Shown here piece after piece: positions 1 to 38,473 of a stretch of DNA of 64,000 nt. This stretch comes from Bryobacterales bacterium (GTDB lineage Bacteria; Acidobacteriota; Terriglobia; Bryobacterales; Bryobacteraceae). The stretch covers positions 430,989 through 494,988 of the forward strand of contig CAVVZB010000001.1 of the NCBI GenBank assembly GCA_963752695.1. Direction: 5' to 3'. Under the pieces are notes generated by a model, which was not told the origin of the DNA, made no database searches, and saw only the letters and a program-made list of their open reading frames with translations. The position numbers and the translations under genes were made by a program. Each line of letters begins with the position of its first letter. The stretch's first letter is position 1.

Positions 1-1757
1 TTTTGGATAGCAACCGTGTCATCGTGCCAGTTCGCTACTGGGGTCGAACTGGTGATGTTGCAGACCGCTCCGAAGTCCCGCACATCGATGACGTCGGAAG
101 CTTTTGCGTTTGCGTTGCGGGGCGTCGCGCCGGTTGGAAGCATCCCGAGGTTGGCGTGATCGTTATTGAGCTGGAATTGACTGCTGGTCAGTGGCACGTT
201 GGTTGGAATTTCTGCCACCTGGAGCTTAGCGTTGCCGTCGAGCGCGGCGTATCCATTGGCAGTGCCCTTATTCAGTTGCGATTCAGGGTTTGACCAAGCG
301 TACCCGGAACCAGTGTTGACGCATGTCAATAGCGCGTTCGGGGTGGTACCGGTGTTCATCCATAATCGCCCGATATGGCTCGCCGTTGTACATCCGGGGC
401 TGGAGGTTTGGCTGGTGAGCTGCACACCGGACGGATTAATCACCAGCCGAGCAGTTGGCGAATAAGCCTGCCCAGCTGTTAGTCCGCTGTCTGCCAGGAA
501 GCTGAATACGCCATTTTGAAATAACAACGAGTTTGCGGCGGGAGCGTTTGCTGTAAAGCTTCCCATATCCGTGGTGACGCCAGCCGATAGCGCCGCCCAC
601 GAGGGGTCGTTCTGATAGCCGTTCCCTATCATGTGAAGACCGCCGGCCGCGAAACCCTGGTTTGTAAGGCCCTGTTTCTGAATGATAAGGCCGTTAACGG
701 ATGTCTCGAAGAGTGCGCCGCCACCGGCGTCCGTTGTTTGAAGCAGGTTTCCAATCGTCAGAGTGGACGTCCCGATGTTTGTGGGAAGGTTCCCGGATGG
801 CAGTCGCCCGGTTGCATCCAGTGGTGCATAGCCGCTCGGCGCGCCCTTGTTGGTGTTGGCTTCGCACGTGGCGCAGGTAACGTCTACCCGGCTCTGCCCG
901 GCATTGGTGGTCGCGGCCAGTGGCCCGGCGAAGTTCAAAGAGTTTTGCGGCGCGACTACTGTTCCGCCGCTTTGAATCCCGATCGTGGAGACTGCCCCCA
1001 TGACATTCCATTTCGTGCTATCGGTACCAGGAATCACGTTTGTGTTGCTGATCACCGCCACATATGTAGATCCGTTGTAAGAAACAGAGTCCAATGCAGA
1101 ATAGGCTGTGGAACCGGACCATGTCCCGCGCGCTTTCAACGCCGGGCCAGTCGCACCTGTGGGTCCCGTGGGGCCTGTCGGTCCCGTAGGCCCGGTAAGT
1201 CCGGCCGGGCCCATCGGTCCGCTCGATCCGTTTGCACCATTAGGGCCCTGCGGTCCAGCCGGGCCTATCGAACCATTTAAACCTGCAGGTCCCGCAGGTC
1301 CAGTGGATCCAGCCGGGCCTTGTGCGCCTGCCGGTCCGGGCGATCCCGCGGCGGCGATTTGCGTCCACTTAGTGCCGTCTGATCCTGGCGTCACTCCAGT
1401 GTTCACGGCGGTTGCCCACCAGGATGATCCTTGGTACGTCACGACATCCAGCGGACTATAAGCTTGCGAAATGTTCCATGGCCCTCGTAAGGTTGGCGAC
1501 TGTCCGCCCGCCCCGCTACCTTGTTTCCAAATCCCAGAGAGGCAGGTAAAAATGTTCCCTGAAGCGAGCGAAAGAACCAAGTTGGTTTTTCCCGGCGACG
1601 GGTTGGTGCAAACTCCCGACGGATCGCTGCTCACCGCGGGCGGAATAAACGCGGCCGCGCTACTAAGATCGAGTTTGCCAAGAATCGTTCGATCGCCGTT
1701 AATCGTGGTCTGTCCCCATGCGGAAGCCGCAATTAGAAACAGCGCTAGTGTCTTCAT
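1..1757 (-). CDS. Secreted collagen-like/tail-fibre-like protein, 3' end outside the window; ends here at the start of a probable right-handed beta-helix (pectate-lyase-3/tailspike-like) domain
   Basis: Translated by hand from ATG 1757 with no stop to position 1. Signal peptide [16 protein letters not shown]; 23 Gly-X-Y triplets (1140-1346); two CBM5/12-like WxxxxxYxxxDxVxYxGSxW/Y repeats flanking the collagen; two NKGxxxGYAxLD repeats; ends [12 protein letters not shown]...DDTVAIQ. Missing from the ORF track because no stop is in the window. Confidence 0.85.
1140..1346 (-). repeat. Collagen triple-helix repeat, 23 uninterrupted G-X-Y triplets
   Basis: [69 protein letters not shown]. Confidence 0.95.
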
Positions 1758-1969
1758 TCGGAAGAGTCCTTTAGTGTCGAAATATCGGGGAGAGTAGGGC
1801 GTGAAAGCGTGCGCAGACTTCAGCCTGGCCCTCTTGAGCACTAGTATGCGGATTCAGGCCAAATCCGGGACAGTCAGGCGCGCCTCTTAGCCGGCCTAAC
1901 TTACTGAAATGTGGAGAGTTCTAACAACGTTGAAACACGCGTGACCCGACTACCATGCACATGTCGCAA

Positions 1970-1986
1970 ACCCGCTTTCGGCAGGT
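1970..1986 (-). terminator. Possible weak terminator hairpin right after the GT-C gene stop
   Basis: Minus strand ACCTGC-CGAAA-GCGGGT followed by only a short T run. Confidence 0.3.
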
Positions 1987-3605
1987 TATTTCGGTAAGTT
2001 CGAGGACACAACGATTTCCGGAGGTAAGCTACCTTGAAACAACGAGATATTTCTTTCGAGCATGGGCTCCACTTCCGGCTCCACGGCCAGGATCTTCACC
2101 GCGTCACCAGCCAGAACGAAGTTGTCGGACAGAGACCAAGTGGCAACCGGCACCCAGGCGAGCGGTATGGCAAATGACTCACCGGCCCACCCGGTGGGAT
2201 ACAAGATCGCCACGCGCGCATGCTCGCGCATAGCCCACTCTCGCAGCCATTCCGTGTTGTATCCGTTCCTCAGCTTTGCGCGCGCCGGCTCCATGCTGCC
2301 CAGCCCGTATACATCCAAAGCGCGTGCGTCCGTGAAGAAACAAACGGCGCCGATGTCGTTCAGCACAATCGTCTCTGTCGGGTAGTACTTCCCTACGAAG
2401 CGCGCCATTTGAAACTGCTGCTCATAAATGTTGTGAAACGCCCGCGGACCGAATGCCATGCTTCGATAACTCTTAAACCCGAGGGTAAGGATGGCAAGCA
2501 CGCCGGCGGCATAACCAACCCCGAACGCCCAGGAACGTGGGCCTAGGGAGAGCGGCTGCAATTGTAAGTCCTGGCTGCCGATGGCGCAGGTGAAGATACC
2601 GGTTGCCACCAAATAGGCTTCATAGCGGTAAAACCATCCTGTGCGCGCCAGTTCCAGATGCAAGAAGCCGATCACAAGGAATTGAATTAGAGCCAGAGAG
2701 GGATAGTTCCAGATCGTCCGGTCTTGCCTCCACCGTAGGTAGAGCAACACAAGCGCCGTCAATAGCAGAAACGCAATATGCGGCGCTTTTACCCCGGCGA
2801 GAGCCCAATTCCATAAAAACCGGAACGCCGGCATCGATACCGAACCGTGCGGAACGTTGGCCTTCAGCAAAATCGAATTGGGCAGCGGCAACCATCCCTC
2901 GCGAACGGATAGCCCGCCGTAGATCGCCAATGGAAGGAACGCGGCCGCTCCTAGCAGCACGGTCGCAAGCCATCGTCGTTGGGCCATTAACATCACACCG
3001 GCGGCAAAGACAAGAAATAGACCTTCGTATCGGGTCATCACAAGAACAGGAGCTAGAACGAACAGCCACTTCATGAAGCCATTAGACGCCCGGTTCATGA
3101 GCGCAAGACACGTCAAATGCACGAATGCAAGAGTGAGAATCGCGTGGAGTACGTGTTCCATCCCGCCTTCTACCACGGCCGGAAGCGGCATAAGAAGAAC
3201 GACCGCAGCGAGAGTGACAAAGATCCTGAAATTGCTCAAACCTGCTTCCTGAAGCAGGCGCTGGGTTAGAGCCAGCAAAGCAATACCCGCACCCAAATTC
3301 AGCAACAGGGGAATGACCTCGTGCACCCCGCTGACCCAGTAGACCCCGGCCAGCAATAGCGTGTAAAGCGGCGACGATGTGGAGGACGAGAAGGCGTAGC
3401 GCGTCACGCCCCAGACTCCATGAAGAGCGAAATTCTTGGCAATCGCCATATGGATATAGGTGTCATCCATCGGATACCCGAAATGGCCGTGACAAAGCTG
3501 CATCGCACGCGCAAACACGGCCGCCACAATCGCCAAAAACAGGGCAACCGAACCGGCCAAACTCGTTACAGCATGAACTCCAGGGGCACGCCCAGGGCGA
3601 GTCAT
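1986..3605 (-). CDS. Polytopic GT-C-fold glycosyltransferase (PMT/arabinofuranosyltransferase-like)
   Basis: 539 aa, many TM helices, acidic MDDTYIH motif in the first loop followed by SSTSSPLY, TRYEG motif, soluble C-terminal domain. Confidence 0.7.
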   Translation of the reverse strand: MTRPGRAPGVHAVTSLAGSVALFLAIVAAVFARAMQLCHGHFGYPMDDTYIHMAIAKNFALHGVWGVTRYAFSSSTSSPLYTLLLAGVYWVSGVHEVIPLLLNLGAGIALLALTQRLLQEAGLSNFRIFVTLAAVVLLMPLPAVVEGGMEHVLHAILTLAFVHLTCLALMNRASNGFMKWLFVLAPVLVMTRYEGLFLVFAAGVMLMAQRRWLATVLLGAAAFLPLAIYGGLSVREGWLPLPNSILLKANVPHGSVSMPAFRFLWNWALAGVKAPHIAFLLLTALVLLYLRWRQDRTIWNYPSLALIQFLVIGFLHLELARTGWFYRYEAYLVATGIFTCAIGSQDLQLQPLSLGPRSWAFGVGYAAGVLAILTLGFKSYRSMAFGPRAFHNIYEQQFQMARFVGKYYPTETIVLNDIGAVCFFTDARALDVYGLGSMEPARAKLRNGYNTEWLREWAMREHARVAILYPTGWAGESFAIPLAWVPVATWSLSDNFVLAGDAVKILAVEPEVEPMLERNISLFQGSLPPEIVVSSNLPK

Positions 3606-3718
3606 AATGTGGTCATTTTGGCACCACCCGCTGAGGAAGCCGCCGCACCTGTACCCCCGATTGCGAGCTTTTTGCCCCTATCGTTGTTAAACTGAAACTT
3701 GTAAGCCAGCCTTCTCTC

Positions 3719-5249
3719 ATGCTCACCGGCGCTGTGCAACGCCACAGCTGGGTTCTTAAAATCATTCAACCGATCCTGATCGGCTTTCTCGCGCTCGCGA
3801 CAGCGCTCGTTGTCTCGGTAAGAACCGAACTGTCGTTTCTGCTCGTTGAAGTCCTTCTTCTGGTGATCGTCATGGTGGTCTCCAAGGCAGAAGTCCCGAA
3901 GCCCATTGTCGCCTACATCGTCGCCGACCACCTTTGTCAGTTTTTTTAAGCGGTTTATCTTTCTTTGGGCGCCGCAGCCGCTCACGGTCTATTACGCCGT
4001 CCAACTATTGCCTTCTGTCTTCTTGGCTGCAGCGATGCTGGTCATTGTTCGCGCCCTTACCCAAAGCCGAATTACTCTGAGTTCGAAAATGTTCATGGGC
4101 TATGCGGGAGTGGCAATCCTTGCATCGTTGTTGAATGCGAAGGCAGTACCTCTTCAGGCTGGGGTGGGCGGTGCCTATCAAGATTTGATTCTGGTGTGCG
4201 CCATTTTTGCCGGAATGATGGTTCCGCTCAGTATATTCACCAGCTTGGGCCGCGTGTTTGCTGCATTGATTCTCATTTCCGTGCCCTATGGTGTTTATCA
4301 GTTCGCCACCGGACCGACATTCATGGATCGCACATGGGCAGAGGCTCTCCATGACACTTCAATGGAGGCAGCCAAAGTCTACCTGGCAATGACTGTCACC
4401 GGCAGCGAATTCCGCGCCTACTCGTATTACGCGGATCATACAACCTGGGGCCTCTTCCTCGCCTTGGCCGTAATCGCGGTGATCATCTCAGCCACGCTTG
4501 GCATGTTTCCGCGAAGATGGCTCTGGGTAGTGGTTCCGATGGGTATGCTCGGTCTTGTGATTTGCCAGACCCGCACGGCCTGGCTTGGTTTGTTAGGTAC
4601 CTTTGTCGTTTATCGAATCATCACCACGCGCCTGCTGCGACGTCCCATGCTGCTCATCATTGGAGTGCTCTCTTCGTTCGCAGTGGTGGTGACATTAGGA
4701 GACTACGTCACCCGCAACGTCAACGTGGGAGTTTTCTCTAGCGCCCTTCTGACCCGCTACGCCACGGTTGGGACCATGGCGGCTCGGACGTCCGCCTGGA
4801 AGCTCTTCGCCCGAAATCTTCCCGCGCATTGGCTGCTAGGGACTGGTTTCGGATTCGCCACCGCCGAGCGGAACGTCTCCCTGAGCGACGAGGTTTTCTC
4901 TCATAACATGTACGTGGAAATTCTGGTCACTGCCGGCTTGCCTGGACTCCTTCTATTTCTCGGCTTTTTCTATTACTGGATTAAGGAGGCATTCTGGGTC
5001 GCAAGGGTGGGGAGCAGGAACGTCTCGCGCGTGGCTTTGTGGTCGATTTCCTTAGCTGTCGGGATGCTGCTCACAGGAAGCGTGCAAGGCACTAATTTCA
5101 TGAACATCTACCTGTGTCTAATGCTGGGAATCACCAGTGGAGAATGGAGACGGCTGAAGAGCGTGGGCCGGGTTTACGCGCCGCGCCCCGCCAGTCAGTT
5201 CGGGCCCCTGCTTACCCGACCCGCTGCAATCGCGCTCCAAAAAGGTTAG
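3719..5249 (+). pseudogene. O-antigen ligase/Wzy-like membrane protein split by a +1 frameshift in a T7 run (phase-variable, pseudogene or sequencing error)
   Basis: ORF 3719-3949 (hydrophobic N-terminus) stops at TAA just after T7 (3941-3947). Removing one T joins it in frame to ORF 3906-5249 (...ADHLCQFFKRFIFLW...), about 509 aa. C-terminal part has QTRTAW, GTGFG and SHNMYVEILVTAGLPG (Wzy_C-like). Confidence 0.75.
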
Positions 5250-5320
5250 CGGTTGTGAGGCATTTCGGCTCTCTACTTGCATAGCCACCTGCGGGTGCAT
5301 GTCACCTTCGGAGGGTGTCC

Positions 5321-5491
5321 GTGAGTTTCGCTATTTACCTGATTGGTTACGCTTTGTTCATCATTGGCATCTGCTATGCTGCCGTTCTGCTCCACGTTCC
5401 CAGCCAGTGGGTTGCCGTGGGAGCCATCATTCTGATCGGCTTAGGTATATTCACTGGGGTGAAGTCCACGCGCACCAAGGACTCAAACTAG
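5321..5491 (+). CDS. Small two-TM membrane protein, 56 aa
   Basis: GGAGG SD then GTG; MSFAIYLIGYALFIIGICYAAVLLHVPSQWVAVGAIILIGLGIFTGVKSTRTKDSN*; below the ORF-track cutoff. Confidence 0.7.
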   Translation: MSFAIYLIGYALFIIGICYAAVLLHVPSQWVAVGAIILIGLGIFTGVKSTRTKDSN

Positions 5492-5554
5492 ACACGCTGT
5501 TCGAATCGCCTGTACACTGAGACAGACGCAGGTTTCAAAAACGCCAATTTATTC

Positions 5555-26433: not shown

Positions 26434-27945
26434 GTGCCCGTGATGGACATGAAAGCTATAGCTAGTTCCCTGCTTTGGTTGGGCGGGATTGCTTTTGTCC
26501 TATCGGTCATTCTTACGCCAATCATGCGCGATATCTTCCGCTCCTATGGCGTGGTGGATTTGCCTGATCAGGGCCGTAAAGCTCATAAATACCCTATCCC
26601 GCGAGTGGGTGGCATCGCCATAGCGATTGCTTACACTCTGGCCTTTGTGTTTGCGCCAGCGCCCGAAGGCTCGCTGCTTCACGAAAATTTATACCTTGTC
26701 TGGCGATTGCTGCCGGCGGCTGGGGTGATCTTTGCTACAGGTATCATTGATGACCTATTCGGACTAAAGCCGTGGCAAAAGCTCATCGGCCAGTTCGGCG
26801 GTGCGACCTTGGCCTACTTCGCCGGTATCCGGGTCTTGATCGTAGTGGGCGTGGCGACCGAAGATTGGTGGAGCTATCCGGCAACTATCCTCTGGTTACT
26901 GGTTTGCACAAATGCTTTTAACCTGGTTGACGGAATGGACGGACTAGCTGGTGGGATCGGGCTTTTCTCGACGCTGACGATTTTCGTTGCGAGCCTGGTG
27001 CACCAGAGTCCCGCTCTGGCGCTTGCGACTGTTCCCCTGGCCGGCTGCTTACTAGGTTTCCTTTGTTATAACTTCAATCCGGCGACCATCTTTTTAGGTG
27101 ATTCGGGCAGTTTGTCCATTGGGTTTCTGCTTGGGTGCTTTGGCATCATATGGACACAAAAATCAGCGACTCTACTCGGAATGACGGCGCCTCTAATGGC
27201 GCTTTCCATCCCCTTGCTCGATACGTGTCTTTGCATCGTCCGCCGCGCGCTCAAGCGCCAGCCGATTTTCAGCCCTGACCGCGGACATATTCATCACAAG
27301 CTACTCGACCGCGGCCTCACGCCCCGGCGGGCAGTGCTAGTTGTCTACGCGGTTTGTAGCCTGGTCGCTTGCTTCTCGATTCTCCAAAGCACCGTTCGCA
27401 GCAATCGGATTAGCGGCGTAATCACCATCGTTTTCTGTGCAGTGGCGTGGCTCGGAATTCAATATCTTGGGTATGCAGAATTTTCGGTAGCCGGAAAGAT
27501 GCTCTTTAGCGGTGATTTCCAAAAGAGTCTGAAGGTCCAATTGGAACTGCATGCCTTCGAGCGCGAAATCGTTAAGGCCGAGACGTTGGAAGATTGTTGG
27601 CGCATTCTTCAGAGCACTGCCAAGAATTGCGGATTTCGATGTGAGCGCTTGCGCGTGGGAGATAGTAGTGTTTTTGAGTCATGCCTCGATTCACGATTGA
27701 CCGAAATGTCAGATCCGCCCGCGGAGTGGCGGTTACGAATTCCGATGCTCGATGGGGGTTACGTCGATCTCACCCGCCCTTTTAACACCGTGATCTCCGC
27801 GTCCGTCGTAGGCCCGTTTGTAGACGTCATCCGCGGAACGCTTGCGCCTACGTTAAAACGTGTGGCGGCAGAGGACCAGAAGCGCGTGGGACTAGGCTCG
27901 ATGGTTCCGGTTGCTGCGACAGGAAATCTTAAGGGCGCGTACTAA
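26434..27945 (+). CDS. wecA: Undecaprenyl-phosphate GlcNAc-1-phosphate transferase (MraY/WecA family) with C-terminal soluble extension
   Basis: PRVGG, GIIDD, NAFNLVDGMDGL, FLGDSGS, DRGHIHHKL. Confidence 0.85.
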   Translation: MPVMDMKAIASSLLWLGGIAFVLSVILTPIMRDIFRSYGVVDLPDQGRKAHKYPIPRVGGIAIAIAYTLAFVFAPAPEGSLLHENLYLVWRLLPAAGVIFATGIIDDLFGLKPWQKLIGQFGGATLAYFAGIRVLIVVGVATEDWWSYPATILWLLVCTNAFNLVDGMDGLAGGIGLFSTLTIFVASLVHQSPALALATVPLAGCLLGFLCYNFNPATIFLGDSGSLSIGFLLGCFGIIWTQKSATLLGMTAPLMALSIPLLDTCLCIVRRALKRQPIFSPDRGHIHHKLLDRGLTPRRAVLVVYAVCSLVACFSILQSTVRSNRISGVITIVFCAVAWLGIQYLGYAEFSVAGKMLFSGDFQKSLKVQLELHAFEREIVKAETLEDCWRILQSTAKNCGFRCERLRVGDSSVFESCLDSRLTEMSDPPAEWRLRIPMLDGGYVDLTRPFNTVISASVVGPFVDVIRGTLAPTLKRVAAEDQKRVGLGSMVPVAATGNLKGAY

Positions 27946-27963
27946 CTAAGAGACGGGCTAGCG

Positions 27964-29310
27964 ATGCGGGCCTTCTCTTTATTTCCAACTCAAACACTGA
28001 TCGTTCTCGTCGGCGATCTCCTGCTTTCCGCTCTTATCTATAGCGTCTCTGCGGCCTATTTGATCCAAGATCCGCTATTAGGCTTCCTTGCGGACTCAAA
28101 TGGATGGCTTCGGTTGCTGCTCGCCGTCATTAGCATCGTCGGGGGCATCTATTTCAACGAGCTATACTCCGCCGTTCGCGTGCGCTCCCGCATCTCACTC
28201 ATTCTTCAGCTATCGCACGTCTTCGGGCTTTCCCTTGTTATCCAGACGCTGCTCGTGTATCTGAATGCGAACTGGGCTCTACCCCGCCGGGTCGTGCTCG
28301 CGGCAACGCTGATCGGACTGCCGGCGTTTTTTCTTTGGCGACTCGCCTATAGCGCCTTTTTATGGAAGCTGTTCGGCACCCAATCGGTCTTGCTTGTGGG
28401 TAATGGCCCGCTCGCACAGGAGTTGGCCCGCTTGATTGCATCGAACCCCGATCGCGCCATGAGCCTCGCCGGCTATGTCGGTGACGCAGTTCCCATCGAT
28501 GCGATTCCAGGCATTTATCTTGGCCGCTTTGAGGAGTTACCGGCAATTACCGACGAAGTGCGGCCGCATCGCGTCGTCGTTGCTTGTTCTGACCGCCGCG
28601 ACGGAGGTATGCCGATTGCAGAGCTTCTAACCGTCCGGCATCGAGGCGTTCCGATCGAAGAAGGTGCCCGGCTGTATGAACTCCTGTGCAATCGTATATG
28701 CGCCAGCGAGTTCAGTCCTTCGCAGTTCATTTTCGATCAGACTCTTAAGCATCGGCCCGGCAGCGTGGCGCTGCAGTCGATCTACATCAATCTGATGGCC
28801 CTCGTCGGGATCGCCGTACTCTCGCCCTTATTGATCGTGTTAAGCATCCTCGTGAAGCTCTCGACACGCGGGCCTATTCTGAATCCGGTTCCATGCGTCG
28901 GCTACCGCCAAATTCCTTTCTCTTTTCTTCGGTTCCGAACCACTCGCCGGGCTCCTGGATCAAACCGTGAAAGCGTGACGCGCCTCGGCGCTTTTTTGCG
29001 AAAGACCAGACTGGAAGTGTTGCCGGCGCTGTTTAACTTGCTGCGTGGCGAAATGGCGATCGTGGGGCCGCGGCTTGATCGACAGGAGATTGGTGAGGAG
29101 CTGGCTAACCGCATTCCGTTTTATGAGCAGCGATATGCACTGCGGCCAGGTCTAACGGGCTGGAGCCAAATCAATATGGACCGTCAACCGGAAGCCCCGG
29201 ATGCGCTGATTTCGCTTGAGTACGACCTCTACTACCTCAAGAATATGTCCCTCTCCCTGGATGCCTACGTCTTGCTGCATCGTTTGCGGCACATGTTTAC
29301 GATCGCTTAG
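27964..29310 (+). CDS. WcaJ/WbaP-type sugar transferase homolog with degenerate catalytic motifs
   Basis: 4 TM + Rossmann-like + Bac_transf domain (LRKTRL, GEMAIVGPR, RPGLTGWSQIN, YDLYYLKN); DELPQ replaced by EVLPA. Confidence 0.85.
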   Translation: MRAFSLFPTQTLIVLVGDLLLSALIYSVSAAYLIQDPLLGFLADSNGWLRLLLAVISIVGGIYFNELYSAVRVRSRISLILQLSHVFGLSLVIQTLLVYLNANWALPRRVVLAATLIGLPAFFLWRLAYSAFLWKLFGTQSVLLVGNGPLAQELARLIASNPDRAMSLAGYVGDAVPIDAIPGIYLGRFEELPAITDEVRPHRVVVACSDRRDGGMPIAELLTVRHRGVPIEEGARLYELLCNRICASEFSPSQFIFDQTLKHRPGSVALQSIYINLMALVGIAVLSPLLIVLSILVKLSTRGPILNPVPCVGYRQIPFSFLRFRTTRRAPGSNRESVTRLGAFLRKTRLEVLPALFNLLRGEMAIVGPRLDRQEIGEELANRIPFYEQRYALRPGLTGWSQINMDRQPEAPDALISLEYDLYYLKNMSLSLDAYVLLHRLRHMFTIA

Positions 29311-29357
29311 ATTCCGGCATCATAAAGTTTTTGGGAAGCTCCACCGATAGGGTTCTC

Positions 29358-29714
29358 ATGACTCCGAACCTGATCCTGCTCAACATTTGCTCAATAGCAT
29401 TGATTGGCCTGCTTGGCCTATTTGCACTGCATAATCGAAAGTCGGGGTGGGTGAAGCACCGGACGACGGTCGTGGAAGATCTGCTCAGCCTTCAGAGAAT
29501 TTGGGATGAGGAAGAAACACGACTAGACGAGTCAGCTCAACCAACCACGGGGCATGCTGCGATATCGCATCAACCGGAACCCACAAAGGCAATGGGTGTC
29601 CAGCTATCTTCGTTGAACTCCGCGCTAAAAAGCTCTGTCTCGAGAAACTCTGAGGCACCCTTAGAACAGGTAAATGCCGACGAACCCCAGACCATGGCCA
29701 TTGAAGCTGCCTAA
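29358..29714 (+). CDS. Hypothetical protein, N-terminal TM and low-complexity tail
   Basis: ATG 29358, hydrophobic first ~25 aa; co-directional with the upstream sugar transferase. Confidence 0.55.
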   Translation: MTPNLILLNICSIALIGLLGLFALHNRKSGWVKHRTTVVEDLLSLQRIWDEEETRLDESAQPTTGHAAISHQPEPTKAMGVQLSSLNSALKSSVSRNSEAPLEQVNADEPQTMAIEAA

Positions 29715-30844
29715 GGCGACAGCTTTGGGATTTTAACCTGGGTAGTCTTCCATAAGCTTGCAGAAGGCACGAAAAATATCGAGACCGCAAATAGCGAAGC
29801 CGCCATCAGCATACAAAAAGTGTGAGCCGGCGCGGTAATCCGCTTCCAAAAAGCCCCTTCTGCGAGCAGATCATCCATTGCCGCCGAACCGTAGAAAAGT
29901 ATCTGCGGTGCAACTGCGATCCAAACCAGTGGCGATGGGAGAAACACGCTTGTCAGAGCAATTACCAGCAGCATGTACGGCAGTATCAGCCGCGTGATCT
30001 TATATGAGAAGAAATGAAACCACTTGGGGCCCAACCCATGGTGCCAGACGTATTGATACAGGCCAGCAAGGGTGCGGACCTTGCGTTGAAATTCCATGCC
30101 ACGGGCGGTAGGGTAGTCGTACGCGCGCGCAGCTGGCTCGAAGATCACCCGGAATCCCCGCCGCAGCACCAGCTGAGGCATAAAGATGTCGTCACCCAGC
30201 GCATCTGAGGGAAGGGGTTCAATAAGCGCGCGGCGCACCGCATAGAGACACCCGGTGACTACGAGTAACGTCCCCATGGCGCTCAGCTTGTGGCGGATCC
30301 ATTTTTCAACTTTCCAGTACAGGCCCACGGACGCTTCTTCGAGCGTATCGCCCCTCGGAATCATCAACTCGCCGCAGACCGCTCCGACGCGAGGATCCGC
30401 AAAGCATGCGACCATCTCGCGCAAGCAGTTCTTCTCCAGTTGTTGGCGCGCATCGGTGAAAAATACGATTTCACCCCGTGCCACCGACAGTCCGTGATTA
30501 ACAGCCGCGGCTTTTCCGCTCTTCGAAATGCAAATTACTTCAACACTCGCGAAGTTTCTCGCGAGTCGTTCCGTGCCATCGTCAGACCCGTCCGACACGA
30601 CGACAACTTGCAGGCATTCGCGGGGATAAACAAGCCTCTGGATCGACTCAAGCTTGCGCACAATCCATTCGGCGCCGTTGTAAACCGGGAGGATGATAGT
30701 CACCGTCAACGGCTCAAACTGCTTGTGTACCGGCCGGGCCCGCAGGCGCGCCAAAATAGCCAGTAGCAGCGGATAGACGAACAGCGCGTACACCACGAAA
30801 CCGGACGCGAATGAAAACAGAAATGCATTCATCCCAACGGCCAT
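29711..30844 (-). CDS. GT2 glycosyltransferase (CesA/IcaA-like)
   Basis: PVYNG, SDGSDD, GKAAA, FTDAR, LGDD, QRKVRT (QxxRW-like). Confidence 0.88.
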   Translation of the reverse strand: MAVGMNAFLFSFASGFVVYALFVYPLLLAILARLRARPVHKQFEPLTVTIILPVYNGAEWIVRKLESIQRLVYPRECLQVVVVSDGSDDGTERLARNFASVEVICISKSGKAAAVNHGLSVARGEIVFFTDARQQLEKNCLREMVACFADPRVGAVCGELMIPRGDTLEEASVGLYWKVEKWIRHKLSAMGTLLVVTGCLYAVRRALIEPLPSDALGDDIFMPQLVLRRGFRVIFEPAARAYDYPTARGMEFQRKVRTLAGLYQYVWHHGLGPKWFHFFSYKITRLILPYMLLVIALTSVFLPSPLVWIAVAPQILFYGSAAMDDLLAEGAFWKRITAPAHTFCMLMAASLFAVSIFFVPSASLWKTTQVKIPKLSP

Positions 30845-30847
30845 ACT

Positions 30848-32146
30848 CTATCGCACCGTTGCATTCACAGGTCTTGGGCTGTTCATCAGCTTGCGAACAT
30901 TGTTTAGCTGGGCGGCGGGCTTAGGGACCGCGACCTCGGCGTTCACGGCGGCCCAAATCGCTACGATCAACCCGGAAATCGCTGGCAGGTAGAAACGGTA
31001 CGCAAAGCTGACGAACACCGTAGCTGTCGTATAGGCCACCATCCCGATCAGGAGACAGAAAGCTGCCGTGGCGATCTCTTCGTTTCCAGCCGCCGCCGCC
31101 GCTTTCCGAGTCTTGACAAGCAGCCCGAAGCTGGAGAATAGAGCCCCCAAGTAGAAGAACAGAGCCGGCAGACCGCACTCCGAAGAGACTTGGGTATAAG
31201 TGTTGTGGGTCTCGTGCCAATTACCGCGCATTCCTTGACTGGTCATCGTACCCCCCTCGTAGCTGGAGAACTGACCCGGTCCGACGCCGAAAACTGGGTG
31301 ATGGAGCGTATAGATTAGACTCTGGCGGAAAAGATATTGCCGCGCAGCGCTCGATTCCAATGCTTCGTCGCTGGCGCTCTCATTCTCGGAAAACGAAGTC
31401 AGGCGTTTCCATGTGCTGCTAGGAATCAAGACCACCAGCGCGATCAGCGCTACCGGCGCGCCAACTACCACCGCCACCCGCTGGCGGGCGCTCCCCGTGA
31501 TCAGCACGAAAACGGCGGTGACTGCCAACGCCACAAGTGCGCCCCGCGATCCCGTATGCAAGATTTGATAGAGCCCTAAGCCCACCGCCACCACACCCAA
31601 GATCCGGACAACGGGAGCGCTCTTCGGTTTGATTACATAGAAAAGAACAAATGGAACCGCCAGCAAAAGATGAGCGGCTAAATCATTGGAGTTGGCAATG
31701 GTGCCGCCCCAGCTCAGCGCCAATCGATCGCTGCTCGTAGTCTGCATGAAGAAATGCGCGGTGCCCAGATTTACGATTGTTGCGAGAGCGATTACGCCAA
31801 TCATCTGCCTGCAGTCCTTCCATGTGCGTGCAAGGCCCGCGGTGATCAGAAACATGCAAACGTCGGTCCTCAGATAAGAGAAGAAATCGCTGGCGGAACC
31901 TCCCGGCCACGAGCTGAATACAATGTCGATCGCCATCCAGGCGAGAAATGCCAACCAGTATTTCCCGATCCGTTCACGAAGGCTTCGCTCCACCCCTCCG
32001 GAAACTGCGATTCCGAAAAAAGCGATCGGACCGAAGATATAGAGAACGTAAGTGTTGATGCCGGTTAAAAAAGTGATCGTCTCGTGCAGGTAGCTGAATC
32101 GCAGGAATAAGAGTGCAAGCGCGCACTTGAACGCCAGCCGGTCCAT
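30848..32146 (-). CDS. O-antigen ligase/polymerase (Wzy_C) family protein
   Basis: NSNDLA, TGSRGA, FGVGPGQF, THNTYTQVSSECG. Confidence 0.88.
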   Translation of the reverse strand: MDRLAFKCALALLFLRFSYLHETITFLTGINTYVLYIFGPIAFFGIAVSGGVERSLRERIGKYWLAFLAWMAIDIVFSSWPGGSASDFFSYLRTDVCMFLITAGLARTWKDCRQMIGVIALATIVNLGTAHFFMQTTSSDRLALSWGGTIANSNDLAAHLLLAVPFVLFYVIKPKSAPVVRILGVVAVGLGLYQILHTGSRGALVALAVTAVFVLITGSARQRVAVVVGAPVALIALVVLIPSSTWKRLTSFSENESASDEALESSAARQYLFRQSLIYTLHHPVFGVGPGQFSSYEGGTMTSQGMRGNWHETHNTYTQVSSECGLPALFFYLGALFSSFGLLVKTRKAAAAAGNEEIATAAFCLLIGMVAYTTATVFVSFAYRFYLPAISGLIVAIWAAVNAEVAVPKPAAQLNNVRKLMNSPRPVNATVR

Positions 32147-32575
32147 TTAGCTGGCGTTCCGTTCCAACAGCTCAATTAGAAGCTTCTCGGCGGTGAGGAC
32201 CCAAGCGATTCGCCGGCCCGCAAAGGCCACAGCCGGTTTTGGGCGCTTGGCAATGACTGCTCGCCGGCTGCGAAATGCAGCCAACTCCGAATCCAAATGG
32301 TCCACCTCGTAGCACAGGTGGTGTAAACCACCGCCCTTTTGCAGAAACTCGCGTACTGGGGACATCCCTTCCGCAGGCTCCACCAGTTCAATTTGGGCAT
32401 CCCGATCACGCACGGTAAGAAACGCTACTTTTACTCTCTGATTTGGGTCTTCAGAGATGACGCCGTCCCACCGGGCGCCCACCGAATGCGCGAAATTGTC
32501 GATTGAACCCGCAATGTCGGCGACTACATAACCGACGTGGTGAAGCGACCTTTCGGCGCTTAGCGGCTCCGGCAC
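32147..32575 (-). CDS. VOC-family protein (methylmalonyl-CoA epimerase-like)
   Basis: LHHVGYVV, IELVEP, GGGLHHLCYEV, IELLE metal-ligand pattern. Confidence 0.88.
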   Translation of the reverse strand: MPEPLSAERSLHHVGYVVADIAGSIDNFAHSVGARWDGVISEDPNQRVKVAFLTVRDRDAQIELVEPAEGMSPVREFLQKGGGLHHLCYEVDHLDSELAAFRSRRAVIAKRPKPAVAFAGRRIAWVLTAEKLLIELLERNAS

Positions 32576-32818
32576 TCAGGCGACCTGCAGCACGGAGTGA
32601 AGGTATTGCAGAATGCGCTCGAACGAATCGAGTTCAGCCAGCTCGTCCAAATCCATCTGGATCTGGAACTCGTCTTCGATGACGTTCACCAGGGTAATCG
32701 CGGCAATGGAGTCCCAGGCGGCTATCGACTCCTGGGTTGCACTGGGAATTTCAGAAACCGGCAACTCCGGGAAAACTGTTTCGAAGCAGCGTTCCAAGCG
32801 CGCCTTCGTATTATCCAT
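32576..32818 (-). CDS. Acyl carrier protein
   Basis: 80 aa, acidic, WDS phosphopantetheine site, IEDEFQI. Confidence 0.9.
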   Translation of the reverse strand: MDNTKARLERCFETVFPELPVSEIPSATQESIAAWDSIAAITLVNVIEDEFQIQMDLDELAELDSFERILQYLHSVLQVA

Positions 32819-34553
32819 TTGTCTCTACTCTCTCCGTCTCAGCAACATGGTGGTACAACGCCGGGCATTTCTCTTCAAACGCCAGGCGGCTTAACGCGAA
32901 ACTACCCGAAGGCTCCTGGCCTGTCAATGCGGCAAATAGATTTCGAGCCGGACCGTTCTTTGCCGTAGGCACGAATTCGATCTGCAATTTCTGCGCCGCA
33001 AACCTCTCGAACATCAGCTTTAGACACTGGAATTCAATACGGCGCGCGAAAGCGCGGCAACTCAACACCCAGGTTTCGATGACCACCGCGTCGCGCTCGC
33101 GCCGCCCCTGGATTACTCCAATTTTACCTAGCGGCCCAAACCGGTCGGCATAGCTGATCACCAGGAGAAATGCGCCGGGCCGGGTGAGCGCCTTTTTCCA
33201 TTCCGCCTCGGTATAGCGGGCCCCGTTGATGTTGAACTGATTTGTCTTATTTACCAGCTCGAGTGCGCGCGCGTCTTCCGTCCCTGCTCCGTAGTCAATG
33301 GTGAGCGTGGCTTCCGCTTGTTGAAGAAACGTCTCCGGAGTGGCGGCGGACGACTCGTGATGGAAATCCGCACCCCGGCGGATGCTCTCCAGCCGGATCG
33401 CGTCATCGCCCGAGACTTGCTCCTTCCCGCAGAGATCGCGCAAATTGCGCAACATTTCCAAAGCTGCCTGAGGCTTTTGCGTGGGGAACGGGACGGTTCG
33501 AATTCCGGGGTGCACGGCGGCAACTTCGGCCAGTTCCATCGGGCTATCGTCGACAAACACGACCGCATCAGCACCGATGTTCCAGGTCTGTAAAATTCGC
33601 TGGACGGAGCCAGACTTAGCTTCCCAGTGCACCTCCATCGGGAAAACCTGATCCGGCCGAAGCAGCAGATCTTCGCGCTGCAGGGCTTTTTGAACCACGG
33701 CTGGATCGTTCTTGCTCGCGATAGCGATCAGCACTCCGGCTTCAGCGAGACTGGCAAGTAGCTGCTGATACAGGCCGTGGACGCGATGATGGCTGGCCAG
33801 ATCCCAGGAGACATTTTCTGGGCCTACGTCGCCCACAATTCCTCGCCACAACGTGTCGTCCAAATCGGTAATGATCCCTTTTATGGGGCTTGCCGGGAGC
33901 AGCAGCCGCGCAAGTGTTGCGGCTAGAACATCGGCGTGCGCAAGCGTATATGGCAAGCCAGTCGCAAGGTCTGATTTCAGGTCGAGGCGTCCGCTCGCGG
34001 GCGAGTTCTCCTGAAGCCTGCGGGCATTGACCACGATCGTGCCCCGCCGTTCCGCGGCGCTGGCCGCGAACTGCGACAAGCTTTCTTCCAAAGCAAGCTC
34101 GGCCCGGCTGGCCTGCCATCCCACCGTGTGAAACGCCGGCGGAATTGGCAGCGTCGGCGTGCAAAGCGCAACCCGGATTCCGGTAGGCAAGCGATCAAGC
34201 GCCGAGCGCAACCGGTCCAACATCGCCCGCGCGCCATTCGCAATGTCCGTCACTGCGGACAGCCCCCAGTTGGCGGACTCGCGATAGCCAAGACGTGGAT
34301 CCAAGTCTGGCCATTCGATCGCGCACCCCACTGCGTCGACATCGGAAACCGCCGCGCCTTCCAAGCTGCCCGCAAGATCGCCGTACAAACCGGTGCTCAC
34401 CTGAACCAGCCGCGCGGGAAGCCGCTCCTGCAAACGCGCATTCAGAAACAACTGCAGATGCAGCGGCGTGAATCCACACGCTAGCAGCGCCGTAAACCGC
34501 GGTTGCTCCTTCGGCGCTAGCTGTAATATTTTGAGAGCTTCTGTGACTGTCAC
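32811..34553 (-). CDS. FkbH-like HAD-IIIC glyceryl transferase/phosphatase
   Basis: DLDDTLW.G, SKND, FVDD...E, LVNKTNQFN, DRFG..G, VLSCR. Confidence 0.92.
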   Translation of the reverse strand: MTVTEALKILQLAPKEQPRFTALLACGFTPLHLQLFLNARLQERLPARLVQVSTGLYGDLAGSLEGAAVSDVDAVGCAIEWPDLDPRLGYRESANWGLSAVTDIANGARAMLDRLRSALDRLPTGIRVALCTPTLPIPPAFHTVGWQASRAELALEESLSQFAASAAERRGTIVVNARRLQENSPASGRLDLKSDLATGLPYTLAHADVLAATLARLLLPASPIKGIITDLDDTLWRGIVGDVGPENVSWDLASHHRVHGLYQQLLASLAEAGVLIAIASKNDPAVVQKALQREDLLLRPDQVFPMEVHWEAKSGSVQRILQTWNIGADAVVFVDDSPMELAEVAAVHPGIRTVPFPTQKPQAALEMLRNLRDLCGKEQVSGDDAIRLESIRRGADFHHESSAATPETFLQQAEATLTIDYGAGTEDARALELVNKTNQFNINGARYTEAEWKKALTRPGAFLLVISYADRFGPLGKIGVIQGRRERDAVVIETWVLSCRAFARRIEFQCLKLMFERFAAQKLQIEFVPTAKNGPARNLFAALTGQEPSGSFALSRLAFEEKCPALYHHVAETERVETNG

Positions 34554-34619
34554 GCCCCCTCTACTTTAACGGTTTTCCCGGTTGGTACCATCAACGTGCT
34601 GAAAGCTTGAGAGTATCGA

Positions 34620-35357
34620 GTGATCGAGAGCATTCTTTTAAAAATCAAGCGCGGAGATTCGGCTTTCTACCGCAGGCTGGGGAGCATGGCTCGCTCCGTC
34701 TCGTCGAGCAACCTGCCCGTCCCTGGTTTTCTCTACCCCGTTCTCCGATTTCTTTTCAATCTCCATACGGAAGTGGCCGCAGGTCTTCGCTGGCTCATCA
34801 GTTATCTCTACTACGAGCCGCTATTTCGCAGCCGCTGCGCTTCCGTGGGCCGCCACTTTCGTCTATCCCGGCTCCCGTTTGTCGTGGGTCACACTCAAAT
34901 ACATATCGGCAACAATGTGAATTTTTTCGGAAAAGTCGATATTTTTAGCGGCCGCATGTATGACCGGCCGACCCTCATTCTGAAAGACCGCGTCGATATC
35001 GGCCACAATGTCGTGTTCGTAGTGAACCAGGAGATCGTTATCGAAGAGGATGTGAATGTGGCTTCGGGCGTGCGCTTCATGGATTCCGACGCACATCCTC
35101 GCGACACGGCGGAGCGGATTGCTGACCTGCCCCCACGGCTCGAAGAAATCAAGCCGGTGCGTATCGGGCGCTATGCGTGGATTGGCCAGAACTCCTTCAT
35201 TCTGAAAGGGGTTACCATCGGCGAAGGCGCGGTCATTGGAGTCAATAGCGTGGTCGTGACCGACATTCCGGCCTATTCGGTGGCGATGGGCAACCCCGCG
35301 CGGGTCGTAGTGAAGAATGCTGGCAAGCCGGTCGCCAGCGCTGATCCCCAGCCGTAA
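34620..35357 (+). CDS. Hexapeptide-repeat (left-handed beta-helix) acyltransferase
   Basis: IGRYAWIGQNSFILKGVTIGEGAVIGVNSVV..DIP....MGNPAR. Confidence 0.88.
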   Translation: MIESILLKIKRGDSAFYRRLGSMARSVSSSNLPVPGFLYPVLRFLFNLHTEVAAGLRWLISYLYYEPLFRSRCASVGRHFRLSRLPFVVGHTQIHIGNNVNFFGKVDIFSGRMYDRPTLILKDRVDIGHNVVFVVNQEIVIEEDVNVASGVRFMDSDAHPRDTAERIADLPPRLEEIKPVRIGRYAWIGQNSFILKGVTIGEGAVIGVNSVVVTDIPAYSVAMGNPARVVVKNAGKPVASADPQP

Positions 35358-35369
35358 ATGCAATAGAGA

Positions 35370-37202
35370 ATGTGCGGCATCGCGGGGTTCATCGAGGCAG
35401 GTCAGGCGGAATGGGCAGGAAATGCCGTGCGCGCAATGGTATCGGCCCTTCAGCGGCGCGGCCCCGATAGCGAAGGCATCCACGCGTGGGCCGATGCGAC
35501 GCTGGGACACCGGCGTCTTGCGATTCTCGATTTGAGCCCAGCCGGCGCGCAGCCCATGCTCTCCGCGGACGGAACGGTAGGACTGGTCTTCAACGGGTGT
35601 ATCTACAATTTCCGGGAGTTGCGGCGGGAACTCGAGTTATTGGGAATTGCTTTCCACTCGCATTGCGATACCGAGGTGCTTCTCGAAGGCTACCGCGCGT
35701 GGGGCATTCGTGAGCTCACACGCAAGATTCAGGGCATGTTCGCCTTCGCCATCTGGGATGCCCCTCAGGAAAAGCTTTTTCTGGTGCGTGACCGGCTTGG
35801 GGTCAAGCCGCTGGTCTACGCGGCAGCTGGCAACCGCATCGCCTTTGCATCCACCATCGATGCTCTCCGCGCAGCCAAGTTGACCGGCGCGGTCGATGCC
35901 GATGCCGTCTTGCAGTTTCTGGAATTCGGCTTCGTTCTGGATACCTCCAGCATTTTCGAAGGCGTCCAAAAGCTGCCCCCAGCGACCGTTCTGGAGTGGC
36001 AGGGCGGCCGCTTTGAGACGTATACCTATTGGGAACTGCCGGAGCCTTCTGCTGAGGCGGGGAACTTCGAAGACGCGGTGGATCGGACCGAGAGCCTTCT
36101 TGTGGAAGCGGTCCGGATGAGGCTGGTTGCCGATGTGCCGGTTGGGGCGCTATTGAGCGGCGGCATCGATTCCACCTTGATTTGCTGGGCGATGGCGAAG
36201 CTGAACGCGAACATCACGGCATTCACAGTCGCGGCCCCGGGAGACGCCGACGACGAGGCGGGCGCGGCGGCGATGACGGCCCGCGCTTTAGGAATCGATC
36301 ACTGTGTGGTTCCTCTGCCGGAAGCCGCCCCGGTCGTGATCGACAACTTGATTGCGGCCTTTAGCGAGCCGTTCGCCGTACATTCGGCGCTCGGTATGCT
36401 GCTGGTGTCGCAGGCAGTTCGGCCGAGGGCGAAAGTCCTGCTGACCGGCGATGGCGGTGATGACGTTTTCTTAGGCTATCCGTTCCTGCATAACGCGTGG
36501 CGCGCTCAGCGCGTAGCTGGATTGCTCCCGCCAGGTGCGGGAAGCCTCTGGGGAGCCATGCGAGGTTTGGTCCCCTGGCGGCGCGCGCGCAATTTCCTGG
36601 ATTACAGCACCGCCGGTTTGGCGGGACACGCTCAAGCCCACGACGGCCTTCCCTGGTTCGAGGCGCGCGGTCTACTGGGGCCGCAATTGCAGGGCCGGGC
36701 CTTAGCGGCGCGGTCCATGCAGGCGAGTTCCGAATCAGCCAGGAGCCTGCTCTCCGAGGTGCTGCGCTATCACCAGAACACGCATTTCACCAGCGAATTC
36801 CTGCCGAAGGTGGATGGTGGAACCATGTACCACGGGATCGAGGCGCGTTCGCCGTTGCTCGATCAGGCGCTCTGGGAACTGGCGGCTTCGCTTCCGTACA
36901 GCTTGCGCATGCGAGGCGGAGAGTTGAAGGCTGTTTTGCGCGCCATTGTCCGAAAGCGGGTAGGGCCGCAGATCGCCAGCCGCAGGAAACAAGGGTTCTC
37001 CATTCCGCTAGAACGGCGGCTGGCCGGAGCTTGGAAACAGGAACTGAAGTCGCTCACCGGCGTCACACTACTTGAAGAACAAGGATGGCTCTCCGCCGGT
37101 CAACTTCGCAGGGTCGTGGACGAGGCGCAACAGGCGAGCGCGGTGCCCGTTCAGATCTGGCGTCTCCTGGTGCTGGAACGCTGGCTTTGCAGCCGGACTT
37201 AA
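35370..37202 (+). CDS. asnB: Asparagine synthase (glutamine-hydrolysing)-type amidotransferase, probably amidating polysaccharide uronates
   Basis: MCGIAG N-terminal nucleophile, HRRLAILDL, RDRLGVKPL, LSGGIDS, TGDGGDD, RRKQGF. Confidence 0.92.
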   Translation: MCGIAGFIEAGQAEWAGNAVRAMVSALQRRGPDSEGIHAWADATLGHRRLAILDLSPAGAQPMLSADGTVGLVFNGCIYNFRELRRELELLGIAFHSHCDTEVLLEGYRAWGIRELTRKIQGMFAFAIWDAPQEKLFLVRDRLGVKPLVYAAAGNRIAFASTIDALRAAKLTGAVDADAVLQFLEFGFVLDTSSIFEGVQKLPPATVLEWQGGRFETYTYWELPEPSAEAGNFEDAVDRTESLLVEAVRMRLVADVPVGALLSGGIDSTLICWAMAKLNANITAFTVAAPGDADDEAGAAAMTARALGIDHCVVPLPEAAPVVIDNLIAAFSEPFAVHSALGMLLVSQAVRPRAKVLLTGDGGDDVFLGYPFLHNAWRAQRVAGLLPPGAGSLWGAMRGLVPWRRARNFLDYSTAGLAGHAQAHDGLPWFEARGLLGPQLQGRALAARSMQASSESARSLLSEVLRYHQNTHFTSEFLPKVDGGTMYHGIEARSPLLDQALWELAASLPYSLRMRGGELKAVLRAIVRKRVGPQIASRRKQGFSIPLERRLAGAWKQELKSLTGVTLLEEQGWLSAGQLRRVVDEAQQASAVPVQIWRLLVLERWLCSRT

Positions 37203-38473
37203 AACGGTCGTACGATCGTGGCCCCGTAAGTCAGCGTAGGTAGAGCGACGTTGCCGCCGCTGAAATTGCAAACGCGAATTGCGACTACGCCCGCAGCACT
37301 TACCCGCGCCATGCCGAAGAATCCCGCTGGCAAAGCAGGCCATCCTGGTACCACGCTGTCAGTCACTTGCGCGCCCGGCAGGGGAACGGTAAGTTCCCCG
37401 CTGCAAGCAGCCGTGTTCACGGTAGGAAACGTTAGCGGGGCTGAGCCTGCGATGGCCGTTGCTCCCATTCCAACCCCGCCCGAGCCGTTAACCGAACATC
37501 TTCCACTTTGCGGCGTGGCGAATTTGACCGTGACGTTGTACGTGGCCGGATCAATCGTAATCTGGCCCGGTTCAATCAGATTCGCTGGCGCGGCGTTATC
37601 ATAGCAACTCACCAGCAGGTTCGCAGTATTCAGATTGTGCTGGGTGCCCGCAATGGACAGCAAAGTGGTTCCCGTGAATGCCACGCTGTAATTAGGCGGC
37701 ACCTGCAGGGTTGTGGGCGTCCACGTACTATTCGTATTACTCCAACTCAAAAGCTGACCGCTAATCGGCGCGGCGCTGGAAACCGTTCGACCTTGTAAGC
37801 CCGCAACCGTAAGCGCGGCTGGCGCGCCGTTCACGTCGCCTCCAATCGCCACAGGCTCCCAGAAACCGGTCATGCCATTGAACTTGAGGAGTTGCCCATC
37901 GGTGGGGGCGAGCGATGAAACACCGCGGCCCTGCAGACCATTGACAGTCAGAGTCGACGGGTTGCCGTGGACATCGCCCGCCAGTGCGGCCGGCTCCCAA
38001 ACATTGCTGCCCGCGTTGAAGCGAAGCAGCTGGCCGTCTGTGGGTGTCGCCGTCGAAAGAGTTTTCCCGCGAAGCCCGCCGACCGTAAGAGCCGAGGGCG
38101 CGCCGCTCACGTCGCCGCCGATGGCTTGCCACACCGGATTACTCCCGTCCGTGCTCAGCAACTTGCCTGCGTTATTCAGTTCTGTGGGTACGAGACTGGA
38201 CTGCGGCACAGCTCCACCTTGAAGCGCCCAAGTGTTGGCAGCAGCGCAGACATAAAGGTTTTGTCCGGCGGGCGCCGAGCTCAGGAAGAAAAACTCTCCT
38301 TGGCCGCAGCTCGCGGGAAGTGTCGAGCCCATTCGGGCCGGTTTAGTTGCCGTGGCAGCGCTGAAGTCGACGCTCCTGGTCTGATTGCGCAGATCGAGCT
38401 TACTCTGACTGCCAAGCGGCGCCGCGCCTAAAATCAATATTGCGGAGCAACTCCGCATCACTCTTAAGTTCAT
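37199..38473 (-). CDS. Secreted fibre-like protein with three 46-aa repeats, 424 aa
   Basis: Start ATG 38473 (SD-like AGGTAGGG), signal peptide, Cys-pair module, three tandem GDVxG..TVxGLxG..PxxGQLLx(F/W)..WxP repeats, beta-rich C-terminal domains with Cys pairs. Confidence 0.8.
   Translation of the reverse strand: MNLRVMRSCSAILILGAAPLGSQSKLDLRNQTRSVDFSAATATKPARMGSTLPASCGQGEFFFLSSAPAGQNLYVCAAANTWALQGGAVPQSSLVPTELNNAGKLLSTDGSNPVWQAIGGDVSGAPSALTVGGLRGKTLSTATPTDGQLLRFNAGSNVWEPAALAGDVHGNPSTLTVNGLQGRGVSSLAPTDGQLLKFNGMTGFWEPVAIGGDVNGAPAALTVAGLQGRTVSSAAPISGQLLSWSNTNSTWTPTTLQVPPNYSVAFTGTTLLSIAGTQHNLNTANLLVSCYDNAAPANLIEPGQITIDPATYNVTVKFATPQSGRCSVNGSGGVGMGATAIAGSAPLTFPTVNTAACSGELTVPLPGAQVTDSVVPGWPALPAGFFGMARVSAAGVVAIRVCNFSGGNVALPTLTYGATIVRPF
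37706..38119 (-). repeat. Three tandem 138-bp (46-aa) repeats
   Basis: GGDVSGAPSALTVGGLRG... / AGDVHGNPSTLTVNGLQG... / GGDVNGAPAALTVAGLQG... Confidence 0.9.

Follow-up and report, generated by a model that had tools for sequence, protein, structure and literature searches.

A repeatable cysteine-pair module shared by two secreted fibre-like proteins of a Bryobacterales bacterium and its possible link to surface polysaccharides

In a 64,000-nucleotide stretch of the genome of a Bryobacterales bacterium (contig CAVVZB010000001.1, positions 430,989 to 494,988; hereafter the window), two distantly placed genes encode secreted fibre-like proteins, here called A and B. Behind their signal peptides, both proteins show a short Ser/Thr/Ala/Pro-rich arm and a pair of cysteines followed by a tryptophan. 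An earlier note on this DNA had read the resemblance as a shared trimerisation, anchoring or export tag of a lineage-specific fibre family, possibly glycosylated by the products of neighbouring genes. The locus thus raises the question of whether the two stretches are related and, if so, what kind of element they represent. We find that a homologous module, able to fold independently, is present in both A and B; it is repeatable and is not an N-terminal tag. The module belongs to a family that is large, centred on one lineage and apparently undescribed, with no entry in the libraries searched.

The canonical copy, B1, occupies residues 22-88 of protein B (window positions 38210..38410, minus strand), directly behind a signal-peptide-like N-terminus (residues 1-21; 38411..38473, minus strand). 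It carries a type-1 leader and reads QSKLDLRNQTRSVDFSAATATKP...C-x19-C-x5-W; the protein that follows the signal peptide can be written as QSKLDLRNQTRSVDFSAATATKPARMGSTLPASC-x19-C-x5-W. The signature proper falls on residues 25-82 (38228-38401, minus strand), with the pattern KLDL...VDFSAATATKP...C-x19-C-x5-W, and B1 scores 102.6 bits against the hidden Markov model (HMM) of the module, with both cysteines and the tryptophan in register. The copy in A, A1, is divergent and has a type-2 leader. It spans residues 15-82 (1512..1715, minus strand), next to a signal-peptide-like N-terminus read from the sequence (1713..1757, minus strand), and its signature is found at residues 28-77 (1527-1676, minus strand) as C50-x21-C72-x4-W77. 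The mature end of A is probably located at Q16-T17, because the dipeptide QT directly precedes the module in ca. 105 of the 117 N-terminal copies of the family described below.

Pairwise similarity alone would have rejected A1 as a relative of B1. The Smith-Waterman score between the two is marginal (36, with z 2.6 and p 0.027 against shuffled sequences), phmmer searches over the genome retrieved only A1 itself from A1 and missed A1 from B1, and A1 scores just 0.8 bits against the profile of B-type modules. We nevertheless kept A1 in the family because profiles and bridging sequences connect it to B1. When the N-termini of five A orthologues were aligned by hhalign with a profile of 388 module instances, the match reached a probability of 92.6%, in the register that the earlier note had proposed, while the maximum among 100 column-shuffled controls was 20.5%. 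The leader of A, 'QT(T/V)INGGRx(I/V)xGxWDASGA..TKP', also precedes a canonical core in 12 other proteins. A type-2 HMM built from 11 of these 12, with the A family left out, aligns A residues 15-82 from end to end (26.8 bits, independent E-value 1.1e-5 among the 40,973 six-frame open reading frames (ORFs) of the whole genome). Finally, a single bridging protein is similar to A1 at z 7.8 and to B1 at z 18.6. These comparisons support the homology of the two copies, with A1 placed as a divergent member of the module family of B1.

Two further stretches of A bear on this family. The full gene encodes 1,807 amino acids (C1:427325-432745) and runs off the left end of the window, and residues 1222-1271, outside the window, form another copy of the canonical module, which lacks the Trp, scores 41.9 bits and matches B1 at z 9.6. 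An internal C-x22-C-x8-W stretch (residues ~442-494; 276..434, minus strand), which had been put forward as a third member, is not supported as one: its pairwise z is at most 0.7 against A1 and negative against B1, its HMM score is -3.5 bits and its hhalign probability is 9.4%. In the A family this stretch has been conserved and also duplicated, with its second copy at residues ~1005-1057. The duplicated parts are residues ~370-494 (276-650 of the window) and, beyond its edge, residues ~935-1057, on either side of the beta-helix region, and the supposed third module is the Cys-pair end of the duplication (...PGC...C...W). Three orthologues (P0163-P0165) have a single copy of the duplicated stretch.

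A module profile seeded from 11 B-like N-termini and searched against 1.84 billion representative proteins retrieved 3,753 clusters at E ≤ 1e-3, of which 2,065 reach E ≤ 1e-10 and 97 reach E ≤ 1e-30, a large and coherent family of the sort that had been postulated. The best 160 proteins hold 388 module instances, at 1 to 8 copies per protein, and 137 of the 160 have a signal-peptide-like N-terminus. The module is ca. 40-64 residues long and consists of three layers, namely leader, arm and core. Leaders are restricted to modules that come first in the mature protein, and are either of type 1, 'QTK(V/I)DLRTQTK', as in B, or of type 2, 'QT(T/V)INGGR', as in A. The arm, with the consensus 'VDFSxAxxTKPxKxG', stands ahead of a core of ca. 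40 amino acids, 'LPxxCxxGExFFxTxAxAGxNLYxCxxxNTW', in which the conserved residues are two near-invariant Cys plus Pro, Gly, Phe/Tyr, Asn and Trp. In the 372 instances used for counting, the spacing is C-x19-C in 323 and C-x5-W in 365; column conservation reaches 99-100% for the cysteines, 99% for the Trp, 98% for P29, 94% for G35, 93% for F/Y38 and for P21, 91% for D12 and 82% for T19. An AlphaFold2 model of the module, made from an 81-sequence alignment, shows a core of four short beta strands with a predicted local distance difference test score (pLDDT) above 90, and the same strands are seen in the model of full-length B, which is all-beta (pLDDT 71.8). Leader and arm are modelled with lower confidence (leader pLDDT 40-68). 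The parts to which the module is joined are of the phage-tail-fibre type, namely collagen runs, 46-residue beta repeats, beta-helix and SGNH esterase domains.

How the module is placed within these proteins bears directly on its role. One possibility is that it serves as an N-terminal anchoring or trimerisation tag, which would nucleate the fibre trimer or dock the base of the fibre on an envelope partner, much as the N-terminal domains of phage fibres sit on the baseplate. In its favour, 127 of the 160 proteins have their first copy starting no further than 40 residues from the N-terminus, the mature QT and both leader motifs show strong conservation, monomer models render the leader poorly, and the partner domains are fibre-like, including the collagen run in A. 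The fold matches found in BFVD are also mostly phage tail-fibre and depolymerase proteins, though weak, and a secreted candidate partner of ca. 1,250 amino acids is encoded on the same strand in 14 of 50 related module loci. On the other hand, leaderless copies are common inside the proteins and in tandem: 137 instances are internal, 79 consist of the core only, and 37 of the 230 gaps between copies are no longer than 10 amino acids. It is this recurrence, including the copy at residues 1222-1271 of A, that weakens the idea of a tag. Moreover, the core is confidently predicted to fold as a monomer, no conserved outer-membrane partner was seen, and the ~1,250-residue protein was rejected as an obligate partner in the present genome, which has no homologue of it. 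We regard such a tag as improbable, and the docking or assembly role that it embodies is at the same time the main rival to the one favoured here. The earlier note was right that A and B share a homologous N-terminal signature with the sequences described; its reading of that signature as a tag is not supported.

Known sorting and anchoring elements offer a related comparison. Like the PEP-CTERM/exosortase signal, the C-terminal domain of type IX secretion, LPXTG and SLH, the module is a short conserved element found on many secreted proteins of one lineage and linked to polysaccharide loci. PEP-CTERM systems also occur in exopolysaccharide (EPS) loci with AsnB-like amidotransferases, and SLH domains attach their proteins to a polymer of the cell wall. 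In contrast to these single terminal signals, the module is N-terminal or internal, is repeated, and comes with neither a basic tail nor a transmembrane segment. In B and in 89 family members it is matched by none of the NCBIfam models for sorting signals, and neither a cognate sorting enzyme, nor dedicated sorting machinery, nor the outer-membrane partner that had been anticipated was found.

Searches of domain libraries, structures and the literature gave little to identify the module by. No model of Pfam or NCBIfam covers it in B or in the 89 members, and the CBM5/12 family of carbohydrate-binding modules (CBM; PF02839) gives no match to B1 at E ≤ 1 and none among the members. The sole library match over the module is phrog_30699, to which no function is assigned in that library, and which appears in 9 of the 89. 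A profile search of the sequences in the PDB returned nothing for the module below E 0.08; the matches to nuclear-receptor zinc fingers found there (E at least 0.08) were dismissed as chance. Foldseek comparisons with the PDB gave nothing significant for the module; CBM5/12 domains (2d49 and ChiB) are among the top matches (E 3-7, TM 0.3-0.4), next to fibre and spike proteins of cyanophages. In BFVD one protein of an uncultured phage, A0A6J5MDB4, matches the module (E 5.6e-4, 33% identity), the remaining matches being weak and mostly phage tail fibres and depolymerases. Searches of the full-text literature turned up no description of the module.

Genes encoding the module are strongly enriched beside polysaccharide loci of the Wzx/Wzy type, and the link is weaker for protein A. 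Protein B lies at the edge of such a locus (26434..37202), in which Pfam models identify GT4, Bac_transf, GT2, Wzy_C, an FkbH-like protein, a hexapeptide acyltransferase and an AsnB-like amidotransferase convergent with B; B itself is downstream of two sensor kinases, and the same order is found in a related locus (L002). We then clustered the flanking genes within 8 kb of 50 related module loci into neighbour families. Glycosyltransferases of the GT1/GT4 type were found in 14 of the 50, AsnB-like proteins in 10, GT2 in nine, Wzy-like proteins in six (6-7), heparinase II/III in six, UDP-glucose dehydrogenase in five and Wzx in four; three smaller polysaccharide clusters (one FkbH-like, one of methyltransferases and a further GT1 group) were counted as well. 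At least one recurrent polysaccharide-gene family is present in 31 of the 50 loci and in 21 of the 25 full-size ones, against a background of 8.0% in the own genome, and a strict set of such genes is present in 17 of the 50 against a background of 1.8%, figures that have to be read with the facts that the loci are related and non-independent, that the families were defined from the same flanks and that the background comes from one small genome.

Of the roles considered, we tentatively favour, with somewhat less than even confidence, that of a small disulfide-stabilised glycan-binding unit, similar to a CBM or lectin, which would tether secreted proteins to the polysaccharide of the cell that makes them. 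This preference is based on the multiplicity and tandem arrangement of the copies, the conserved aromatic, Asn and Gly positions, the carbohydrate-active partner domains and the genomic neighbourhood. The module would hold its proteins on the cell's own exopolysaccharide, capsule or O-antigen. Once the protein is exported, its two cysteines would become disulfide-bonded, a sugar-stacking face would be provided by the conserved aromatics (profile positions F/Y38, F39, Y50 and W58), and multiple copies would add avidity. B would then be a structural protein of the matrix or a fibre protein, and A a probable polysaccharide depolymerase or deacetylase. The CBM5/12 domains of Streptomyces griseus chitinase C (2d49) and Serratia ChiB provide the closest analogy: they too are small beta modules (ca. 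40-60 amino acids) with conserved exposed aromatics that occur, often several times over, on secreted carbohydrate-active proteins, and A itself has CBM5/12-like units. However, the disulfide signature C-x19-C-x5-W of the module is foreign to them, as is its DFSxAxxTKP arm.

Several observations weigh against glycan binding. No Pfam CBM model matches the module, and its Foldseek matches to CBM5/12 are non-significant (E at least 2.3). The Wzy-like gene beside A is absent from three of the five orthologous loci, where A abuts infC or a kinase pair, the contig that carries a paralogue of B has no Wzy_C gene, and the limits of the enrichment given above apply here as well. A pure sugar-binding role would also leave the conserved leaders of the mature N-termini unexplained; as they are poorly modelled in addition, a role in protein-protein contacts, sorting, docking or assembly stays alive. 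A further explanation needs no ligand at all: the module may be a neutral spacer or capping domain of mosaic tail-fibre-like proteins, its proximity to polysaccharide genes being due to the whole proteins, which would belong there as depolymerases and matrix proteins. The highly mosaic make-up of these proteins, their variable repeat numbers and the lack of significant similarity to any characterised binding domain, in Foldseek against the PDB as in the profile search of PDB sequences, agree with it. What speaks against it is the very strong conservation of surface-type aromatic, Asn and Gly positions over thousands of clusters, together with the existence of proteins that are little bigger than one or two modules (e.g. 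133-202 amino acids). We consider a neutral spacer unlikely.

The neighbouring O-antigen-ligase-like genes allow another reading, in which the arm 'DFSxAxSTKP', rich in Ser, Thr, Ala and Pro, is an O-glycosylation acceptor for a nearby oligosaccharyltransferase of the Wzy_C family, akin to PglL or PilO, and the proteins are decorated with the repeat unit of the locus. Pfam (PF04932, gathering cut-off 31.7 bits) confirms that each of the two fibre genes has a Wzy_C gene in its vicinity, as claimed earlier: one near A (3906..5249, plus strand; E 1.5e-12, 47.9 bits) and one near B (30848..32146, minus strand; E 5.7e-19, 68.8 bits). They are separated from A and B by 2.8 and 5.6 kb, respectively, and the genome has five such genes. 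Enzymes of the PglL type are members of the Wzy_C superfamily, with a preference for Ser within Ala/Pro-rich loops. The conservation of the arm (D12, T19 and P21) and the Wzy-like genes in 6-7 of the 50 loci are further points in favour of this reading. Yet the Wzy_C genes sit among genes for Wzx, glycosyltransferases and initiating transferases, which is where a Wzy polymerase is ordinarily encoded; a Wzy_C homologue is lacking within 8 kb of the module gene in most loci; the neighbour of A, missing as it is from most of the orthologous loci, looks frameshifted here; and the arm is not known to match a sequon. Glycosylation of the arm by the neighbouring ligase is very improbable, the least probable of the roles considered. 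The second enzyme invoked for it, a 'GT-C-like' protein, is a polytopic membrane protein of 539 amino acids encoded between A and the Wzy-like gene (1986..3605, minus strand), and it matches no Pfam family at E ≤ 0.1. Altogether, co-occurrence with polysaccharide genes holds for the family at large, while the particular association of A with a Wzy_C gene does not extend to three of the five orthologous loci.

The architecture of A agrees with the fibre-like nature assigned to it from the start. The window holds its first 585 codons (3..1757, minus strand), which encode, in order, the signal peptide, A1, a CBM5/12-like unit, a collagen G-X-Y run, tail-fibre-like units and the start of a beta-helix (DVRDFGA...DDT.AIQ). 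Beyond the window follow a large internal duplication, the module copy mentioned above and an SGNH/GDSL esterase domain. Pfam detects Collagen (7e-11) and, in the full-length protein, GDSL_2 (2.3e-10); the sole CBM_5_12 match (2.4e-4) is under the cut-off and falls on residues 212-240, outside the module. NCBIfam gives only models of collagen-like adhesins, on the G-X-Y run, and in PHROG the tail fibre family phrog_5073 matches at 4.6e-36, together with many other tail-fibre families, while B has weak matches to tail proteins only.

These parts resemble those of phage tail-fibre and tailspike depolymerases (PHROG families; KP32gp38, PDB 6tku), which likewise combine collagen runs, NKGxxxGYAxLD motifs, a beta-helix, an SGNH esterase and C-terminal beta-sandwiches. 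Unlike the phage proteins, the module proteins have Sec signal peptides and are encoded in chromosomal, non-prophage neighbourhoods beside polysaccharide loci; infC, genes of a ligase operon, sensor kinases and EPS genes are found around them. The module is also encoded by 13 IMG/VR contigs (L058-L070), there too on signal-peptide proteins, and no PHROG structural matches were obtained among the 10 neighbours (within 6 kb) at the four of these 13 loci that were checked. The status of virion proteins was rejected on the grounds of the signal peptides of A, B and most family members and of the missing structural neighbours on the checked viral contigs. The module-bearing IMG/VR stretches may be host flanks or may have been misclassified.

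In its distribution the module follows one bacterial lineage. The 50 loci, taken from GTDB species genomes, nearly all come from organisms titled Bryobacterales, Bryobacteraceae, Solibacteraceae or Terriglobia. All eight genomes of the window's genus contain one A-like and one B-like gene, and in two of them the pair lies 40-46 kb apart on one contig, as it does here. The module is further present in 11 of the 17 other genera of Bryobacteraceae. The search, whose coarse first filter may miss divergent copies, detected it neither in 16 genomes from two sister families nor in 200 other genomes drawn from the rest of the phylum. In this sample the family is lineage-centred, as had been suggested from a single stretch of DNA. 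One could go further and imagine a class of surface proteins that is specific to Bryobacteraceae and anchored to exopolysaccharide. Fibre and depolymerase parts of the phage type would have been turned by domestication into components of the matrix that are exported through Sec, and a new disulfide-bonded lectin fold would fix them to the Wzx/Wzy polysaccharide of their own cell. The leader ('QTK-DLRTQTK' or 'QT-INGGR') would act as a second recognition element for docking or processing. In this complete form the picture is speculative, and we hold it to be unlikely.

Bryobacteraceae are among the commonest bacteria of soil and peat, and to our knowledge hardly any work exists on the extracellular matrix that they make. 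As an unannotated domain that occurs in thousands of clusters, on fibre-like, collagen-like, depolymerase and esterase proteins, the module merits at least a new domain-family entry. Its model would re-annotate many 'hypothetical proteins' as secreted and polysaccharide-associated, and, combined with the ligand-binding hypothesis, it offers a handle on the building and remodelling of the matrix in this family.

Protein B (37202..38473, minus strand; 424 amino acids) is made up of the signal peptide, the canonical module, three 46-residue beta repeats and two C-terminal beta-sandwich domains. Foldseek of its full-length model against the PDB gave nothing significant, and the Fab-like matches merely reflect the two beta-sandwiches. 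The longest ORF would begin at GTG 38608, which was rejected as the start since homologues and a paralogue on contig C3 begin at a Met equivalent to ATG 38473. The GTG shares bases with the stop codon of the sensor-kinase gene upstream (38605); with the ATG start, a gap of 131 nt separates B from the two same-strand sensor kinases, an arrangement that is also kept in L002. The three repeats are exact and cover residues 120-257 (37709..38116, minus strand), with the pattern GDVxGxPxxLTVxGLxGRxxSxxxPxxGQLLxxxxxxxxWxP. Their number differs among near-identical paralogues and orthologues, from one in the otherwise near-identical C3 paralogue (C3:535054-536055) to three in B and up to ca. nine in P0008, which suggests a stalk of adjustable length.

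The region between infC and A (window 1758-5554) is a variable island. Here it contains the 539-residue membrane protein and the Wzy-like gene. The latter is split between two frames at a run of seven T (~3935-3941), with its N-terminal part upstream in the other frame; that frame (window 3720-3945) encodes ca. 75 residues with transmembrane-like segments and ends just past the T run (CAGTTTTTTTAAG). Judged from the sequence, the split fits a one-base frameshift, be it that of a pseudogene, of phase variation or of a sequencing error. In two orthologous loci the island is nearly empty, with one small ORF at most, and in a third it holds a KaiC-like ATPase and a histidine kinase. Only the closest relative has a Wzy_C/acyltransferase island, composed of Wzy_C, Acyl_transf_3 and three unannotated proteins of ca. 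500 amino acids.

At the 14 loci mentioned above, the secreted protein of ca. 1,250 amino acids comes after the module gene on the same strand (e.g. L004:9406-13224, L009:9411-13214, L011:5714-9550 and L036:9521-13210). It has no Pfam match and shares a conserved N-terminus, 'AITN(V/I)R(I/V)xGVTxTQAV(L/I)xYTAPD'.

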